Source of the DNA: a virus
Taxonomy: Duplodnaviria; Heunggongvirae; Uroviricota; Caudoviricetes
Virus record (IMG/VR): IMGVR_UViG_3300045988_101675
Length of the DNA stretch: 22,138 bases
Strand: one strand, 5' to 3'
Shown here one piece after another: positions 3,683 through 9,972 of this stretch. The translations under genes and the position numbers were made by a program. The notes below the pieces were generated by a model that worked only from the letters and a program-made list of their open reading frames with translations, was not told the origin of the DNA and made no database searches. Each line of letters begins with the position of its first letter. Within the stretch, counting starts at the first letter, position 1.

Positions 3683-3954
3683 GCATTCGTATTGAAATTG
3701 GCGAACGTTATGTGGTTACCAGTGACAGCTTCCAGTTTATTCTCCACGAGAAAAAGAGAGCGGAAAGCGGTAAAAACGCCGGTCAGGAGTGGCTGGCGGT
3801 GGTTGGTTATTACCCGAAATTAAGCCAGCTCGTTTCCGGCCTGATGCATCACGATATTCTGACCGGAAGCGCAAAATCTTTTGCCGATTTAAACGCGCAG
3901 GTTGAGCAACTCAGCAAGCGTTGCTCAGAGGCTTTTGGCTCACATGGCCGTTAA
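3679..3954 (+). CDS. Hypothetical early protein (91 aa)
   Basis: ORF in the early operon. Its 3' end overlaps the A start by 11 nt. Confidence 0.6.
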   Translation: MSIRIEIGERYVVTSDSFQFILHEKKRAESGKNAGQEWLAVVGYYPKLSQLVSGLMHHDILTGSAKSFADLNAQVEQLSKRCSEAFGSHGR

Positions 3955-6229
3955 AGCCTCCGGGCGTTTTGTCCCTCCGTCAGCATTTGCCGCAGGCACC
4001 GGTAAGGCGTTTACCGGTGCTTATGCATGGAACGCGCCACGCGAGGCCGTCGGGCGCGAAAGACCCCTTACACGTGACGAGATGCGTCAGGTGCAAGGTG
4101 TTTTATCCACGATTAACCGCCTGCCTTACTTTTTGCGCTCGCTGTTTACTTCACGCTATGACTACATCCGGCGCAATAAAAGCCCGGTGCACGGGTTTTA
4201 TTTCCTCACATCCACTTTTCAGCGTCGTTTATGGCCGCGCATTGAGCGTGTGAATCAGCGCCATGAAATGAACACCGACGCGTCGTTACTGTTTCTGGCA
4301 GAGCGTGACCACTATGCGCGCCTGCCGGGAATGAATGACAAGGAGCTGAAAAAGTTTGCCGCCTGTATCTCATCGCAGCTTTTCATGATGTATGAGGAAC
4401 TCAGCGATGCCTGGGTGGATGCACATGGCGAAAAAGAATCGCTGTTTACGGATGAGGCGCAGGATCACCTCTATGGTCATGTTGCTGGCGCTGCACGTGC
4501 TTTCAATATTTCCCCGCTTTACTGGAAAAAATACCGTAAAGGACAGATGACCACGAGGCAGGCATATTCTGCCATTGCCCGCCTGTTTAACGATGAGTGG
4601 TGGACCCATCAGCTTAAAGGCCAGCGTATGCGCTGGCATGAGGCGTTACTGATTGCTGTCGGGGAGGTCAATAAAGACCGTTCTCCTTATGCCAGTAAAC
4701 ATGCCATTCGTGATGTGCGTGCGCGCCGCCAGGCAAATCTGGAATTTCTTAAATCGTGTGACCTTGAAAACAGAGAAACCGGCGAGCGTATCGACCTTAT
4801 CAGTAAGGTGATGGGCAGTATTTCTAATCCTGAAATTCGCCGGATGGAGCTGATGAACACCATTGCCGGTATTGAGCGTTACGCCGCCGCAGAGGGTGAT
4901 GTGGGGATGTTTATCACGCTGACCGCGCCGTCAAAGTATCACCCGACACGTCAGGTCGGAAAAGGCGAAAGTAAAACCGTCCAGCTAAATCACGGCTGGA
5001 ACGATGAGGCATTTAATCCAAAGGATGCGCAGCGTTATCTCTGCCGTATCTGGAGCCTGATGCGTACGGCATTCAAGGATAATGATTTACAGGTCTACGG
5101 TTTGCGTGTCGTCGAGCCACACCACGACGGAACACCGCACTGGCATATGATGCTTTTTTGTAATCCACGCCAGCGTAACCAGATTATCGAAATCATGCGT
5201 CGCTATGCGCTCAAAGAGGATGGCGACGAAAGAGGAGCCGCGCGAAACCGTTTTCAGGCAAAACACCTTAACCGGGGCGGTGCTGCGGGATATATCGCTA
5301 AATACATCTCAAAAAATATCGACGGCTATGCACTGGATGGTCAGCTCGATAACGATACCGGCAGGCCGCTTAAAGATACTGCCGCGGCTGTTACCGCATG
5401 GGCGTCAACGTGGCGCATCCCGCAATTTAAAACGGTTGGTCTGCCGACAATGGGGGCTTACCGTGAACTACGCAAATTGCCTCGTGGCGTCAGCATTGCT
5501 GATGAGTTTGACGAACGCGTCGAGGCTGCACGCGCCGCCGCAGACAGTGGTGATTTTGCGTTGTATATCAGCGCGCAGGGTGGGGCAAATGTTCCGCGCG
5601 ATTGTCAGACTGTCAGGGTTGCCCGTAGCCCGTCGGATGACGTTAACGAGTACGAGGAAGAAGTCGAGAGAGTGGTCGGCATTTACGCGCCGCATCTCGG
5701 CGCGCGTCATATTCATATCACCAGAACGACGGACTGGCGCATTGTGCCGAAAGTGCCGGTCGTTGAGCCTTTGACTTTAAAAAGCGGCATCGCCGCGCCT
5801 CGGAGTCCTGTCAATAACTGTGGAAAACTCACCGGTGGTGATACTTCGTTACCGGCTCCCACACCTTCTGAGCACGCCGCAGCAGTGCTTAATCTGGTTG
5901 ATGACGGTGTTATTGAATGGAATGAACCGGAGGTCGTGAGGGCGCTCAGGGGCGCATTAAAACACGACCTGCGAACGCCAAACCGTCAGCAAAGAAACGG
6001 AAGCCCGTTAAAACCACATGAAATTGCACCATCGGCCAGACTGACCCGGTCGGAAAGAATGCAAATTACCCGTATCCGCGTTGACCTTGCTCAGAACGGT
6101 ATCAGGCCGCAGCGATGGGAGCTTGAGGCGCTGGCGCGTGGCGCGACCGTAAATTATGACGGGAAAAAATTCACGTATCCGGTCGCTGATGAGTGGCCGG
6201 GATTCTCAACAGTAATGGAGTGGAAATGA
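3944..6229 (+). CDS. A: Rolling-circle replication initiation endonuclease gpA (HUH superfamily)
   Basis: Track ORF begins at TTG 3902; trimmed to ATG 3944 (MAVKASGRFVPP...), giving 761 aa, the P2 A length as I recall it. Contains the HUH-like PHWHMMLF motif and the two-tyrosine active-site segment GYIAKYISKNIDGY. Confidence 0.93.
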   Translation: MAVKASGRFVPPSAFAAGTGKAFTGAYAWNAPREAVGRERPLTRDEMRQVQGVLSTINRLPYFLRSLFTSRYDYIRRNKSPVHGFYFLTSTFQRRLWPRIERVNQRHEMNTDASLLFLAERDHYARLPGMNDKELKKFAACISSQLFMMYEELSDAWVDAHGEKESLFTDEAQDHLYGHVAGAARAFNISPLYWKKYRKGQMTTRQAYSAIARLFNDEWWTHQLKGQRMRWHEALLIAVGEVNKDRSPYASKHAIRDVRARRQANLEFLKSCDLENRETGERIDLISKVMGSISNPEIRRMELMNTIAGIERYAAAEGDVGMFITLTAPSKYHPTRQVGKGESKTVQLNHGWNDEAFNPKDAQRYLCRIWSLMRTAFKDNDLQVYGLRVVEPHHDGTPHWHMMLFCNPRQRNQIIEIMRRYALKEDGDERGAARNRFQAKHLNRGGAAGYIAKYISKNIDGYALDGQLDNDTGRPLKDTAAAVTAWASTWRIPQFKTVGLPTMGAYRELRKLPRGVSIADEFDERVEAARAAADSGDFALYISAQGGANVPRDCQTVRVARSPSDDVNEYEEEVERVVGIYAPHLGARHIHITRTTDWRIVPKVPVVEPLTLKSGIAAPRSPVNNCGKLTGGDTSLPAPTPSEHAAAVLNLVDDGVIEWNEPEVVRALRGALKHDLRTPNRQQRNGSPLKPHEIAPSARLTRSERMQITRIRVDLAQNGIRPQRWELEALARGATVNYDGKKFTYPVADEWPGFSTVMEWK

Positions 6230-6681
6230 TGGCAAAAATTCACGAGGTAAAGCTGCACGCAAAATATTTTGACCTTGTGCTGGAAGGAAAGAAACGCGCA
6301 GAGTTTCGGAAAAATGACCGTAATTATGAGCGCGGGGACACATTGATTTTGCATGAATGGGTGCAGGGTGTGTTTACGGGGCGAAAGGTTGAAGCCCGGA
6401 TAACAGATGTTACTGACCTGTCAGACTGGCTGGAAGATTATGTCTTGCTAAGTATTGAGCTGCTTAATACGGGCGCATATAAGATTGTGAACTGGAAAGA
6501 ACTTAGTGAGCGTGGCCTGGTATTCAGAATTAATCATGAAATTATGCATCAGCTCGGCCTTGCTGTTATGTATGAACCAGAGACGGGGATGTCTGGCGGG
6601 GCAATGGTTGCCACGGATGGAGTATGGAACTATTCAGATGAACAGATGGAGCGTGCACAGCAAAACGGGTGGCTCGGATAA
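6226..6681 (+). CDS. ASCH/DUF3850-like domain protein with a C-terminal extension
   Basis: 151 aa. The N-terminus (EVKLHAKYFDLVLEGKKRAEFRKNDRNYERGDTLILHEW) resembles ASCH/DUF3850 domains as I know them. GGAG lies 5 nt upstream. The start overlaps the A stop, suggesting translational coupling. Confidence 0.7.
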   Translation: MMAKIHEVKLHAKYFDLVLEGKKRAEFRKNDRNYERGDTLILHEWVQGVFTGRKVEARITDVTDLSDWLEDYVLLSIELLNTGAYKIVNWKELSERGLVFRINHEIMHQLGLAVMYEPETGMSGGAMVATDGVWNYSDEQMERAQQNGWLG

Positions 6682-6735: not shown

Positions 6736-6894
6736 ATGGCCATTGTTCACCGTCTACAGCAGATTATGGTCAACGAAAATCTGACGCCCGATGAACTAGT
6801 CGGGTGTGCCGAAATAGTCCGGGATAATTACGGGCGACTTAACTATATCGGTATCGGTCAGTCCAGAGTTGCGCCACCACCACGCAGACGATAG
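6736..6894 (+). CDS. Possible small ORF (52 aa)
   Basis: ATG-initiated ORF read by hand, below the 60-aa track cutoff, ending 5 nt before repeat copy 1. No clear Shine-Dalgarno sequence. Confidence 0.25.
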   Translation: MAIVHRLQQIMVNENLTPDELVGCAEIVRDNYGRLNYIGIGQSRVAPPPRRR

Positions 6895-6898
6895 AGAA

Positions 6899-6965
6899 CG
6901 CCGCCAGTCGTGAAACTTGTTTTCAGGGCTGGCGGCGTTGAACAACGAGCGAAGCGAGGCGTTAG
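6899..6965 (+). repeat. Copy 1 of a 67-nt repeat: 39-nt GC-clamped stem-loop (6899-6937) plus a 28-nt tail ending GCGTTAG
   Basis: CGCCGCCAGTCGTGAAA / CTTGT / TTTCAGGGCTGGCGGCG forms a stem of about 17 bp. About 82% identical to copy 2. Lies at the left boundary of the AT-rich insert. Confidence 0.65.
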
Positions 6966-7123
6966 TTGACAGTCATATTTTTACTGCGTTGGTGCTGGTT
7001 TTTGACGGTTGAAAGGAGTTAGCCAGGAGAGCAAAAGCCAACAACTTACAAATATTCAAAAGTAAGCTTCCTGTTGCTAACATAAGGTCGATTTTTTATG
7101 TGGATGATGCAAAAAGGATAGCT

Positions 7124-7855
7124 ATGGATATTGTAATCGCTTTTCTATCACTCGCTTTTTTCGTTGCTTTTTTCATCGGGTTAATCAAGCCATCACTGGT
7201 GCGGATGCCAAACCGTAAACGTGCAAGTGCGGTTTATCTCGGAGGTAGTTTTGCATTGAGCATAATTGGTTCAATACTCTACCCAACAGAAAAAAGCCAG
7301 CCAGTTGCTAAAACTGAAACAGCAACCGTAGCAGAACACCAGGCTCAAAAAACATTCGAATATACTGAAAAAACACTCAAGGAATATCGGAACGAGCCAA
7401 AGAAGACGCGACACGATATTGTGAATAGTTACATTAACTTTAAGAAAGTGCCAGTCACCGCATCAGATGCATTTTATGCCTGCATGAGTGAGTATACATT
7501 TACCAAAGATGATGAGTTGAAACTCGGTGATGTTCTTGGGTGGTGCTTTAATGATTATGAAAATGACCCGAATTCATTAAACAATAAAATCAATCTTGAT
7601 ACATTTCAGAGTAATTTTAGTGGTTGGGATGGTTCTTATCGGCCATTGGAAAAATTAATTAAAGATAATATGAACGATGATTCATCTTATAAACATGTGT
7701 CAACGGTATATCATTTGGTTTTGAATAAAGACCCGCACGCCATTGTGAAAACCACGTTTCGCGGCACTAATGCTTATGGTGGAGTGGTAAAGCAGACCGT
7801 AGCGGCGCGCGTCAACGTGCGAACGGGTGAGGTCGATTCGATACTCGACAATTAA
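7124..7855 (+). CDS. Accessory membrane protein of unknown function: two predicted N-terminal TM helices and a ~180-aa C-terminal domain
   Basis: Track ORF begins at GTG 7100; ATG 7124 has AAGGA 5 nt upstream. Hydrophobic segments IVIAFLSLAFFVAFFIGLI and AVYLGGSFALSIIGSILY. AT-rich, unlike the backbone. No recognisable motif. Confidence 0.7.
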   Translation: MDIVIAFLSLAFFVAFFIGLIKPSLVRMPNRKRASAVYLGGSFALSIIGSILYPTEKSQPVAKTETATVAEHQAQKTFEYTEKTLKEYRNEPKKTRHDIVNSYINFKKVPVTASDAFYACMSEYTFTKDDELKLGDVLGWCFNDYENDPNSLNNKINLDTFQSNFSGWDGSYRPLEKLIKDNMNDDSSYKHVSTVYHLVLNKDPHAIVKTTFRGTNAYGGVVKQTVAARVNVRTGEVDSILDN

Positions 7856-7871
7856 ACAATATAGTGACATA

Positions 7872-7938
7872 CCCCGCCAGTACTGAAACTTGTTTTCAGT
7901 GCTGGCGGGGTTAAACAAAGAGCATCGTGAAGCGTTAG
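7872..7938 (+). repeat. Copy 2 of the 67-nt repeat: stem-loop (7872-7910) plus tail
   Basis: CCCCGCCAGTACTGAAA / CTTGT / TTTCAGTGCTGGCGGGG. Same architecture as copy 1, with the second stem base pair swapped from G-C to C-G. Lies between the two accessory genes. Confidence 0.65.
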
Positions 7939-7963
7939 ATTAAAATCATTTGAGGCAGATAAA

Positions 7964-8626
7964 ATGCTTTGGAAAATAATTTCTTTTTTATTAGTTGGTA
8001 TTTGTATGTTTGCTTTCGGTTTATGGTTAGGCTCTATTCAGGCTGAATGGGCGAAACCAGAGCATAAAGATGCTGTTGCTTATTTAGCAATGATCGGAGG
8101 ATGGGTCTCAGGAATTGCAACGTCAGTCGCAGTAATTATTTCATTGTATGCGACATATCAAGCATCACAGAATAATGTTGAAAAATTAAGTTTAACCTAT
8201 AAGCCTTACTCTAGCGTAGACAAAGAAAATTATTGTGCCAATATTGAGGTTGTAAATTTGCGGAGCGTTCCGGTACATATACAAGAGTTTTGCTTAGAAT
8301 TTAGTGGGATAAATAATCATTTCAACATAAACGAACTAAAAGCAAATGGGAAGGAGATACCGTATTCTTTATACCAAGTAGGAGAGAAATGGGAGTTTGC
8401 CTTCTATCCTTTTGCAAAGCTGGGAAATATGAGGTTCTATAAAAGCTTAAGTGAGAATGGTAATCCAAGTTTTCGTAGTGGTTTCTTTGTGGTTAAAACA
8501 TCAATGAAACAATACAAATTAAGGATACCTAATGAGCTTTTGGAAATTATGAAAATTAGCTATGAAAAGCAAATGGAAATACGGAAGAATTATAAGGAAA
8601 TGCATGGTAAAGAGATGGGCTTTTAA
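7964..8626 (+). CDS. Accessory membrane protein of unknown function: two predicted N-terminal TM helices and a ~150-aa C-terminal domain
   Basis: 220-aa ORF with GAGG 8 nt upstream of the ATG. Hydrophobic segments IISFLLVGICMFAFGLWLG and VAYLAMIGGWVSGIATSVAVIISLY. Very AT-rich. Last gene before cos. Confidence 0.7.
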   Translation: MLWKIISFLLVGICMFAFGLWLGSIQAEWAKPEHKDAVAYLAMIGGWVSGIATSVAVIISLYATYQASQNNVEKLSLTYKPYSSVDKENYCANIEVVNLRSVPVHIQEFCLEFSGINNHFNINELKANGKEIPYSLYQVGEKWEFAFYPFAKLGNMRFYKSLSENGNPSFRSGFFVVKTSMKQYKLRIPNELLEIMKISYEKQMEIRKNYKEMHGKEMGF

Positions 8627-8749
8627 AACGCATTAACAAGCATCAAATTGCATGCGCATCCCTCCCCTGTTGTGTTTGAGCGCTGCCAGTGATGGTGTGC
8701 CTCTGGCGTGTTCGTGCAACTGCATTAAAACCGCCCCATGAAGCGGGCG

Positions 8750-8768
8750 GGCGAGGCGGGGAAAGCAC
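8750..8768. other. cos site: 19-nt cohesive-end sequence GGCGAGGCGGGGAAAGCAC
   Basis: Matches the P2 cohesive-end sequence as I remember it. Located between the accessory region and gene Q, as in P2. A 6-bp GC dyad (CCGCCC ... GGGCGG, 8731-8750) abuts its left edge. Confidence 0.75.
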
Positions 8769-8937
8769 TGCGCGCTGGCGGTGGTGCTGATTTTATTTTT
8801 TCAGCGTCTGAGCGCGTCTTGATGGCGTTTAGATTGTGCGCCGGGGCGTTGGTGTGTCTGCGGGGTGTTTTGTGCGGTGGTGAGCGTGTGAGGGCGTGAT
8901 GACGGGGTGTAAAAAAGCCGCCCGCAGGCGGCGATGT

Positions 8938-9972
8938 TCAGCCGTTGTCAGTGTCCAGTGAGTAGTTTTTAAAGCGGATGACCTCCTGGCCGAGCCAGCC
9001 GTTTATTTCCCGAATCCTGTCCTGTAGCGGGATAAGCTCATTGCGGACAAAGACCTTTGCCACTTTCTCAATATCACCCAGAGACCCGACGTTCTCCGGC
9101 TTGCCGCCCATCAACTGAAAGGGGATGCGGTGCGCGTCCAGCAGGTCAGCGGCGCTGGCTTTTTTGATATTAAAAAAATCGTCCTTCGTCGCCACTTCAC
9201 TGAGGGGGATAATTTTAATGCCGTCGGCTTTCCCCTGTGGGGCATAGAGAAACAGGTTTTTAAAGTTGTTGCGGCCTTTCGACTTGACCATGTTTTCGCG
9301 AAGCATTTCGATATCGTTGCGATCCTGCACGGCATCAGTGACGTACATGATGTATCCGGCATGAGCGCCGTTTTCGTAATACTTGCGGCGGAACAGCGTA
9401 GCTGATTCATTCAGCCAGGCAGAATTAAGGGCGCTGAGATATTCCGGCAGGCCGTACAGCTCCTGATTAATATCCGGCTCCAGCAGGTGAAACACGGAGC
9501 CGGGCGCGAAAGGTGTCGGCTCGTTGAAGGACGGCACCCACCAGTAAACATCCTCCTCAACACCACGGCGGGTATATTTTGCCGGTGAGGTTTCCAGTCT
9601 GATGACCTTACCGGTGGTGCTGTAGCGCTTTTCCAGAAACGCATTACCGAACACCAGAAAATCCAGCACAAAGCGGCTGAAATCCTGCTGGGAAAGCCAC
9701 GGGTGCGGAATAAACGTTGAAGCCAGAATATTACGTTTGACGTAAATCGGTGAGCTGTGATGTACGGCAGCACGCAGGCTTTTTGCCAGACCGGTAAAGC
9801 TGACCGGTGGCTCATACCATCTGCCGTTACTGATGCACTCGACGTAATCCAGAATGTCACGGCGGTCGAGTACCGGCACCGGCTCACCAAAGGTGAATGC
9901 CTCCATTTTCGGGGCGCTGGCGGTGATTGTTTTTGCCGCAGGTTGCGGTGTTTTCCCTTTTTTCTTGCTCAT
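8938..9972 (-). CDS. Q: Portal protein gpQ
   Basis: 344 aa, the P2 Q length as I recall it. First gene after cos, co-oriented with the large terminase, with a 1-nt overlap between the P stop and Q start. Confidence 0.93.
   Translation of the reverse strand: MSKKKGKTPQPAAKTITASAPKMEAFTFGEPVPVLDRRDILDYVECISNGRWYEPPVSFTGLAKSLRAAVHHSSPIYVKRNILASTFIPHPWLSQQDFSRFVLDFLVFGNAFLEKRYSTTGKVIRLETSPAKYTRRGVEEDVYWWVPSFNEPTPFAPGSVFHLLEPDINQELYGLPEYLSALNSAWLNESATLFRRKYYENGAHAGYIMYVTDAVQDRNDIEMLRENMVKSKGRNNFKNLFLYAPQGKADGIKIIPLSEVATKDDFFNIKKASAADLLDAHRIPFQLMGGKPENVGSLGDIEKVAKVFVRNELIPLQDRIREINGWLGQEVIRFKNYSLDTDNG

Follow-up and report, generated by a model that had tools for sequence, protein, structure and literature searches.

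A P2-type prophage carries an orthologue of coliphage 186 Orf97, a predicted membrane-anchored periplasmic protein and candidate envelope-level exclusion factor

We analysed a stretch of 22,138 nucleotides from a virus of the class Caudoviricetes (IMG/VR record IMGVR_UViG_3300045988_101675), hereafter called the window, with a focus on one accessory gene at positions 7124-7855. The window is a P2-type (Peduovirus-like) prophage and carries the integrase, C-type repressor, Cox, gpA, portal Q, terminase, scaffold and capsid genes. The gene of interest lies between gpA and Q, in an interval with a G+C content of 37-40% versus 51-60% for the backbone. This interval has been described as a hotspot of anti-phage cargo, with old and tin as its occupants in P2, and 18,150 gpA-gpQ loci were found in Escherichia coli (Rousset et al. 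2022, PMC9122126). An earlier note on this DNA, made from the letters alone, had taken the gene for a membrane-anchored accessory gene; its position in the low-G+C cargo hotspot agrees with this view and makes it a moron-type gene.

The product of the gene is 80% identical to Orf97 of coliphage 186 over 243 of 243 residues, with 0 gaps (BLASTP, E 2e-155). It also matches phrog_3403 over profile positions 1-243 of 243 (E 4e-145), and copies that are 93% identical at the DNA level carry the label Orf97 in Peduovirus P22H4 and in phage 9W. Together with this full-length homology, we found two further features of the Orf97 family, namely two N-terminal transmembrane (TM) helices followed by a C-terminal domain of ~165 aa with two invariant cysteines, and a location between gpA and the cos/portal Q side. 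From the sequence comparison, we conclude that the gene is the P2-type orthologue of coliphage 186 orf97, which is already known and catalogued and whose mechanism is unsolved. The protein had been presented in the earlier note as an unrecognised one; this holds for the C-terminal domain, which falls in no Pfam, NCBIfam, PADLOC or PDB sequence family, and not for the protein as a whole, which has a full-length orthologue in 186 and an entry in phrog_3403.

In the GenBank record of 186 (U32222), Orf97 (AAC34191.1, 29604-30335) is accompanied by the remark 'expression from plasmid blocks 186 infection', and the record of a 186-type Yersinia phage repeats this remark. The order given in U32222 is p95, tum, the partial terminator t95a, orf97 and t95b, with orf97 as the distal gene of the LexA-controlled p95 'SOS operon'. 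Orf97 was reportedly described by Brumby et al. in 1996 (Virology 219:105), in a study of the SOS operon of 186. A role in phage exclusion is compatible with this record. Our searches found no characterised non-defence protein among the homologues, and the copies in related elements are not pseudogenes.

The family has surfaced elsewhere. Homologues of tum and orf97 have been reported in the Salmonella prophage BTP5 (PMC5322425). In Table S5B of Rousset et al. 2022 (PMC9122126), a near-identical protein constitutes P2-hotspot system #12; it ranks 12th among 169 systems and is entered as a single gene without Pfam match, with '2 TM' and with 210 occurrences. The sequence of system #12 was not found in the tables of tested systems of that study (Table S2) and no name is given to it; likewise, the term 'orf97' was not found in the paper or its supplements, which make no link to 186 (PMC9122126). 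Orf97 is not mentioned in the main text of a 2026 hotspot paper in Nucleic Acids Research, and full-text literature searches retrieved no later functional study of this protein.

The coding sequence starts at the ATG at 7124, ends with the stop codon at 7853-7855 and specifies 243 aa. The longest possible open reading frame (ORF) opens at a GTG at 7100, where no Shine-Dalgarno sequence is present. The ATG at 7124 corresponds to the annotated start of 186 Orf97, and most of the aligned homologues also have 243 aa and the same start. The good ribosome-binding site credited to this ATG in the earlier note is indeed there, at a spacing of 5 nt (Table 1), and its AAAGGA core is unvaried in the alignment of the 186 and P2-type copies. 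The ratio of nonsynonymous to synonymous substitution rates (dN/dS) ranges from 0.06 to 0.16 for comparisons with 186 and five other homologues; it is 0.07 against the 186 copy, a comparison in which synonymous sites are close to saturation. The regions differ: the linker has a dN/dS of 0.31, whereas the values for the TM region and the C-terminal domain are 0.08 and 0.05. The gene was matched in 88 of 5,426 complete E. coli genomes, and at least 80% of it is present in 86 of these 88. The segment 7124-7855 is thus a real coding gene under strong purifying selection; a pseudogene or a chance ORF is ruled out by the dN/dS values and by the conservation in E. coli genomes.

The structure of the protein was predicted with AlphaFold2 from an alignment of 33 sequences, giving a model with a mean predicted local distance difference test score (pLDDT) of 82.8. 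From residue 81 on, ten-residue blocks average a pLDDT of 87-95, except for the last three residues. Two hydrophobic helices had been proposed within the first 60 residues, and the model contains both of them (Table 1). The 13-residue loop that joins them (KPSLVRMPNRKRA) contains five Lys/Arg and no Asp/Glu, and the segment after TM2 is net acidic. Because of this basic loop between the TM helices, the positive-inside rule leads to a predicted N-out/C-out topology. Beyond a linker, the model shows two modules, one helical and one of the alpha/beta type. The former may be HdeA-like and the latter would be cystatin/NTF2-like; these are resemblances at the level of the fold and no evidence of homology.

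Exactly two cysteines are present, as had been noticed, namely C120 (7481-7483) and C141 (7544-7546), and both are invariant in 34 homologues. Among 102 remote representatives possessing the helical module, 73 have both cysteines, 26 have neither and 3 have a single one, two of the latter being fragments; where both are missing, their places are typically taken by F/A, Y/A or F/G. Since the cysteines are kept or lost together, a Cys120-Cys141 disulfide is likely. Taken together with the basic inter-TM loop and with the lipobox or Zn-ribbon anchors of the relatives (see later in the text), this co-variation argues that the domain would be located outside the cytoplasm. The aromatic segments GWCFNDYENDP and FSGWDGSYRP and the C-terminal segment GTNAYGGVVKQTVAARVNVRTGEV, singled out in the earlier note, were all found. 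To call the last one Gly-rich is too strong, as it has 4 Gly in 24 residues, and these glycines are located in or between predicted beta-strands.

No match for the protein was obtained in Pfam, NCBIfam or PADLOC-DB v2, the Pfam and PADLOC searches being run at E values up to 1. When PDB sequences were searched with a profile, accepting E values up to 10, one chance match (E 1.3) and no HdeA/HdeB chain came up. In Foldseek searches against PDB and BFVD, the only significant match was one uncharacterised viral protein (E 3.8e-4). The Pfam, PADLOC, NCBIfam and PDB profile scans detected no enzymatic, nucleic-acid-binding or cytoplasmic domain in Orf97 with which it might recognise or break down parts of a phage inside the cell. 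Judged by its sequence, Orf97 belongs to neither the HdeA nor the cystatin family.

Table 1. Features of the orf97 locus in the window; residue numbers refer to the 243-aa product, and structural descriptions are predictions.
Feature	Position	Strand	Remarks
gpA	3902-6229		
Repeat copy 1	6898-6976	+	Stem-loop of 18-19 bp (6897-6939), then GTTGAACAACGAGC..GCGAGGCGTTAG; after small ORF 6736-6894
Candidate sigma-70 promoter	7055-7083	+	-35 TTCAAA 7055-7060, 17-nt spacer, -10 TAACAT 7078-7083; consensus match only
Shine-Dalgarno AAGGA	7114-7118	+	5 nt ahead of ATG 7124; read from the sequence
orf97-type gene, 243 codons plus stop	7124-7855	+	Identity to 186 Orf97, phrog_3403, 161 homologue clusters, dN/dS
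Membrane anchor, residues 2-52	7127-7279	+	TM1 2-21, loop KPSLVRMPNRKRA, TM2 ~31-52 (AlphaFold2)
Linker, residues 56-77	7289-7354	+	Poorly conserved, indel-rich part of the alignment; pLDDT <50 at 56-73
Predicted periplasmic helical module, residues 85-163	7376-7612	+	Cys120 and Cys141; fold possibly HdeA/HdeB-like
C-terminal alpha/beta module, residues 164-243	7613-7852	+	Predicted helix 173-181 packed against a four-stranded antiparallel sheet (190-242); most conserved motifs SGWDGSYRPLEKLIK and MNDDSSYKH
Repeat copy 2	7871-7949	+	Directly after the orf97 stop codon, position as in phage 186
Cargo gene, 220 aa, phrog_16957	7964-8626	+	N-terminal hydrophobic segments; frequent, non-obligate orf97 neighbour
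Portal Q	8938-9972	-	

A word-indexed search gave 161 homologue clusters, all of them full-length, and those with an organism name are all enterobacterial. An exhaustive profile search, counted in representatives after clustering at 50% identity, extended the family to 2,875 members with E values of 1e-3 or lower, of which 1,301 reach 1e-10 or lower. Many of the remote relatives match only residues ~160-242, that is, the C-terminal module of ~80 aa, whose motifs are FSxWDGSxxxLExxIK and MNDxxSYxH, then FRGxNAxGG. The domain of the relatives sits behind a lipobox, a single TM, a cytoplasmic Zn-ribbon plus one TM, or a bPH domain. When 20 remote relatives were submitted to Pfam and NCBIfam, only the N-terminal Zn-ribbon or bPH parts were matched and never the shared domain, and the source names of 10 remote relatives are all 'hypothetical' with the exception of one evident mis-annotation. 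The C-terminal module defines a very large extracytoplasmic domain family outside all the family libraries searched.

The contexts of these relatives are diverse. Distant prophage copies are found beside a P2-type integrase in Mixta and beside a CI/LexA-like repressor in Vibrio. In Vibrio phage VHML, a homologue (ORF47) is located after gpD. Homologues with 47-57% identity adjoin ogr, gpD, sheath and tube genes in Photorhabdus (loci L033-L035, 10001-10750) and Xenorhabdus (loci L017, L020 and L021, ~5001-5730), a layout resembling that of xenorhabdicin/photorhabdicin tailocin loci. The Photorhabdus copies and that of L017 are full-length and have both TM helices; in the L020 copy, a Zn-ribbon and one TM replace the two TM helices, and that of X. 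indica (L021) is a partial protein match at a locus with a fragmented gpD. In three Xenorhabdus species, the Orf97 homologue stands immediately beside an ogr homologue; the gene is not universal in the clusters of these genera. Xenorhabdicin loci have been described as flanked by araC and ogrK (PMC13280938).

Besides the window, orf97 lies between gpA and Q in 186, 9W, P24A7b, BIS20 and eight bacterial loci, and variable cargo of 0 to ~3.4 kb separates it from Q. Two arrangements were recognised. The P2-type order, found in the window, 9W and P24A7b, is gpA, orf91, an ORF of 52 aa, a hairpin element and orf97. The 186-type order is gpA, tum, orf97 and the hairpin element, and was observed in phages as well as in prophages of Kluyvera, Citrobacter, Erwinia, Enterobacter, Scandinavium, Salmonella and Yersinia hosts. 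The P2 orf91 equivalent of the window (6193-6681, plus strand) overlaps the end of gpA, and its product contains ASCH/DUF3850 (E 1e-17) and DUF7415; an ASCH-like gene is also found near an Orf97 relative in a Vibrio prophage (L023 7486-8214).

The gene had been described as bracketed by two copies of a repeat, which we located on either side of it and which are 80% identical over 79 nt, each with a stem-loop of 18-19 bp; no shuffled version of the window matched the hairpin pattern. The element has the form CCGCCrG...TGAAA-N5-TTTCAG.GCTGGCGG, then GTTGAACAACGAGC..GCGAGGCGTTAG. Its place is behind orf97 in phage 186 and six 186-type loci, and behind the homologous 52-aa ORF in 9W, P24A7b and the locus L008. 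The copy of 186 (L001 3773-3840) bears no annotation and is situated after the stop codon of orf97 and before the terminator t95b. This recurrence identifies the repeat as a conserved intergenic element of the Peduoviridae. No Rfam family was found for the hairpin, and there is little covariation in 10 copies. A canonical intrinsic terminator was considered and rejected: the stem is followed by no T-run, and the terminator scan did not list the hairpin. Two copies are the expected product of a recombination between the P2-type and 186-type arrangements at the hairpin element, and we infer that those of the window reflect such an event. The element may mark a recombination junction between cargo modules.

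The window copy differs from that of 186 in its regulatory signals. No LexA box was found upstream of it, LexA-box-like matches in the window being no commoner than expected by chance, and no Tum homologue was detected in the P2-type loci, the window having orf91 and the 52-aa ORF in the place of tum. SOS regulation of the window copy was rejected on these grounds. A candidate sigma-70 promoter upstream of the gene scores 10.6 bits in a position weight matrix scan, the 99.9th percentile of the window being 7.8; a stricter consensus promoter scan did not list it. Both hexamers, TTCAAA and TAACAT, are kept in all four P2-type sequences. The stretch ~7066-7100 aligns with the t95a terminator region of 186, with loss of the G+C-rich stem, and the candidate -10 hexamer lies inside the aligned stretch. 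A relic of the t95a terminator may have turned into a promoter upon transfer of the gene out of the SOS operon and into the P2-type context. Read-through from the early operon gpA-orf91 is also plausible, because the upstream hairpin lacks a T-run. Without the SOS control of 186, expression of the window copy would therefore depend on early-operon read-through and/or on the candidate promoter.

We propose that Orf97 probably acts as a prophage-borne, envelope-level superinfection exclusion protein directed against 186/P2-type phages. According to this model, the two N-terminal TM helices would anchor the protein in the inner membrane, leaving the 13-residue basic loop as its cytoplasmic part, and the flexible linker would display the two-module domain, stabilised by a disulfide, in the periplasm. 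There, the domain would disturb a step between adsorption of incoming 186/P2-type phages and arrival of their genome in the cytoplasm, likely by binding a conserved component, either the tail tip or tape measure or the host inner-membrane or periplasmic machinery used by the tail. Action in the envelope appears the most likely because only ~13 residues are cytoplasmic and no enzymatic or nucleic-acid-binding domain was detected. The omega value of 0.05 in the periplasmic domain would fit the binding of a conserved partner, as would the recurrence of homologues beside P2-type tail modules. Of two features of exclusion proteins, encoding by a prophage is observed and location in the envelope is predicted from the topology. 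We infer both the transfer of the phenotype from 186 to the window copy and the block at genome entry.

Several observations weigh against this proposal. The sole recorded phenotype is a one-line annotation that concerns the 186 orthologue expressed from a plasmid, and the window copy has neither tum nor a LexA box, its candidate promoter being a match to the consensus. In PADLOC, PDB profile and Foldseek searches, no characterised exclusion protein resembled Orf97 in sequence or, at a significant level, in structure. The very strong conservation is unusual for genes engaged in an arms race. Finally, some relatives are in contexts that are apparently chromosomal and not of phage, for example in Sulfurimonas (L024) and Enterobacter asburiae (L015), so that the domain itself would not be specific to exclusion.

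The block of 186 could alternatively result from cell damage, if Orf97 were an abortive-infection or toxic membrane effector, a 2-TM protein that perturbs the inner membrane by leak or depolarisation upon infection or when over-expressed. The small TM proteins of P2/P4 hotspots are often taken as suicide effectors (PMC9122126), and the recorded phenotype comes from plasmid expression only. However, about 70% of the protein is predicted to form a well-folded and strongly constrained periplasmic domain, its cytoplasmic part is a 13-residue loop without a sensor domain, the gene stands alone at most loci without a detectable partner sensor, and 88 complete E. coli genomes maintain it stably; we consider a toxic effector unlikely. 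We are doubtful, if slightly less so, about a function in lysogenic conversion, in which an envelope protein combining an HdeA-like bundle with a cystatin/latexin-like module would act on the host as a periplasmic binder, chaperone or enzyme inhibitor, alter the physiology of the envelope and interfere with 186 only as a side effect of over-expression. Such a role would be in keeping with the 2,875 remote relatives, some of which are in non-phage neighbourhoods, and with the strongly purifying selection. It is at odds with the restriction of the Orf97 subfamily proper to accessory slots of P2/186-type elements, with profile searches that connected the sequence neither to HdeA nor to another family in PDB or Pfam, and with the very fact that a phage-blocking phenotype was recorded.

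The remaining alternatives retain the exclusion activity and change its timing or its breadth. Exclusion during lytic growth is what Imm and Sp of T4 provide. Orf97 might similarly be a helper of the lytic cycle, made together with Tum upon SOS induction in 186 or together with the early genes in P2-type elements, which would stop released progeny or competitor phages from injecting into a cell already committed. The position of orf97 directly behind tum in the LexA-controlled p95 operon, in 186 and in all the 186-type loci examined, speaks for it, as does the location of the window gene downstream of gpA-orf91 on the same strand, with an intervening hairpin devoid of T-run. However, the window copy has lost the SOS signals and has a candidate promoter of its own, and the hotspot is shared with old and tin, which are expressed in the lysogen and thus suggest expression from the prophage. 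A lytic helper would differ from the exclusion protein proposed above in timing only, and we regard it as quite unlikely. A broader possibility, to which we would assign a low probability, is that the Orf97 family provides general immunity against P2-type contractile tails, those of R-type tailocins as well as of phages, the WDGSYRPLE/MNDDSSYKH module binding a conserved component of the tail tip or tape measure or a host structure on which the tail depends. This would explain why homologues track P2-type tail modules across different elements (186/P2 prophages and VHML), why the Photorhabdus and Xenorhabdus copies adjoin ogr-gpD-sheath-tube in an arrangement like that of ogrK-flanked tailocin loci, and why Orf97 is so unusually conserved. 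If it were true, the module would be the first functionally anchored member of an extracytoplasmic domain family of 2,875 representatives.

The interval between orf97 and Q contains a second cargo gene (7964-8626), for which no Pfam match was found. Behind orf97, phages 9W and P24A7b and Salmonella phage BIS20 have genes whose products are 25-39% identical to that of 7964-8626, and a DNA-level match for the latter was obtained in only 4 of the 5,426 E. coli genomes. Members of this family were not found after orf97 in 186, EtG, Yersinia phage MDG45 and most 186-type loci. For this reason, and given that a single gene is listed by Rousset et al., an obligate two-gene system composed of orf97 and 7964-8626 was rejected. 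Whereas Orf97 is conserved, the family of its neighbour diverges fast. Between the cargo genes and the end of Q, the stretch 8640-8935 has a G+C content of 56%. Within it are a small ORF (8738-8899, phrog_17350) and, behind Q, a strong terminator on the minus strand (8932-8917). At its start, the stretch is similar to the right end of 186 (GCAACTGCATTAAAACCG), and it is presumably the cos region.

A phage-blocking phenotype has been on record since 1996, yet neither a mechanism nor a solved structure nor a family annotation exists for Orf97. The present work newly ties hotspot system #12 to Orf97 of 186, models the protein with two periplasmic modules and a co-varying, putative disulfide, and shows the size of the unannotated domain family, for which the Orf97 phenotype is the first functional handle. 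The link between system #12 and Orf97 offers a concrete starting point for the study of what is likely a new class of exclusion in the envelope, the model having a clear conserved motif at its surface. The gene recurs as cargo of the P2/186 hotspot; current concepts are unchanged, and in this window it is an ordinary, catalogued gene.

Comparison with known systems places the window gene closest to its named relatives. With 186 Orf97, it shares the length of 243 aa, the ungapped identity of 80% and the architecture of two TM helices and a C-terminal domain, as well as a location after the replication gene and before cos/portal, with the same hairpin element after the stop codon. The differences concern the surroundings: in 186, tum and the partial terminator t95a precede the gene, which is the second of the LexA-controlled p95 operon, whereas the window gene comes after orf91 (ASCH/DUF3850) and the 52-aa ORF, with only a degenerate counterpart of the t95a region. 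Membership of an SOS operon (p95, tum, t95a), which was not found for the window copy, is a feature of the 186-type context and not of the protein family. System #12 of Rousset et al. 2022 differs from the window protein by a few residues and is likewise a single-gene system of the gpA-gpQ hotspot. As to folds, Orf97 would resemble HdeA/HdeB and the cystatin/latexin/NTF2-like proteins in being periplasmic and in having a disulfide in its helical module, both being predictions for Orf97. It differs from them in that sequence-profile similarity is absent and Foldseek similarity non-significant, and in that its modules are fused and tethered to the membrane.

The old and tin genes of P2 occupy the same gpA-gpQ hotspot and are, like orf97, low-G+C cargo of a P2-type prophage. 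Old, a nuclease, and Tin are cytoplasmic and act on lambda and T-even phages, whereas a periplasmic location is predicted for Orf97 and 186 is the target on record. The closest functional parallels would be Imm and Sp of T4, SieA of P22, gp15 of HK97 and Sim of P1, which we take to be envelope-level superinfection-exclusion proteins. None of them has detectable homology to Orf97. The likeness is one of type: these are small, phage-encoded proteins of the inner membrane or periplasm that have no nucleic-acid-directed domain and block phages of the same type, as the predicted topology and the 186 record suggest for Orf97.

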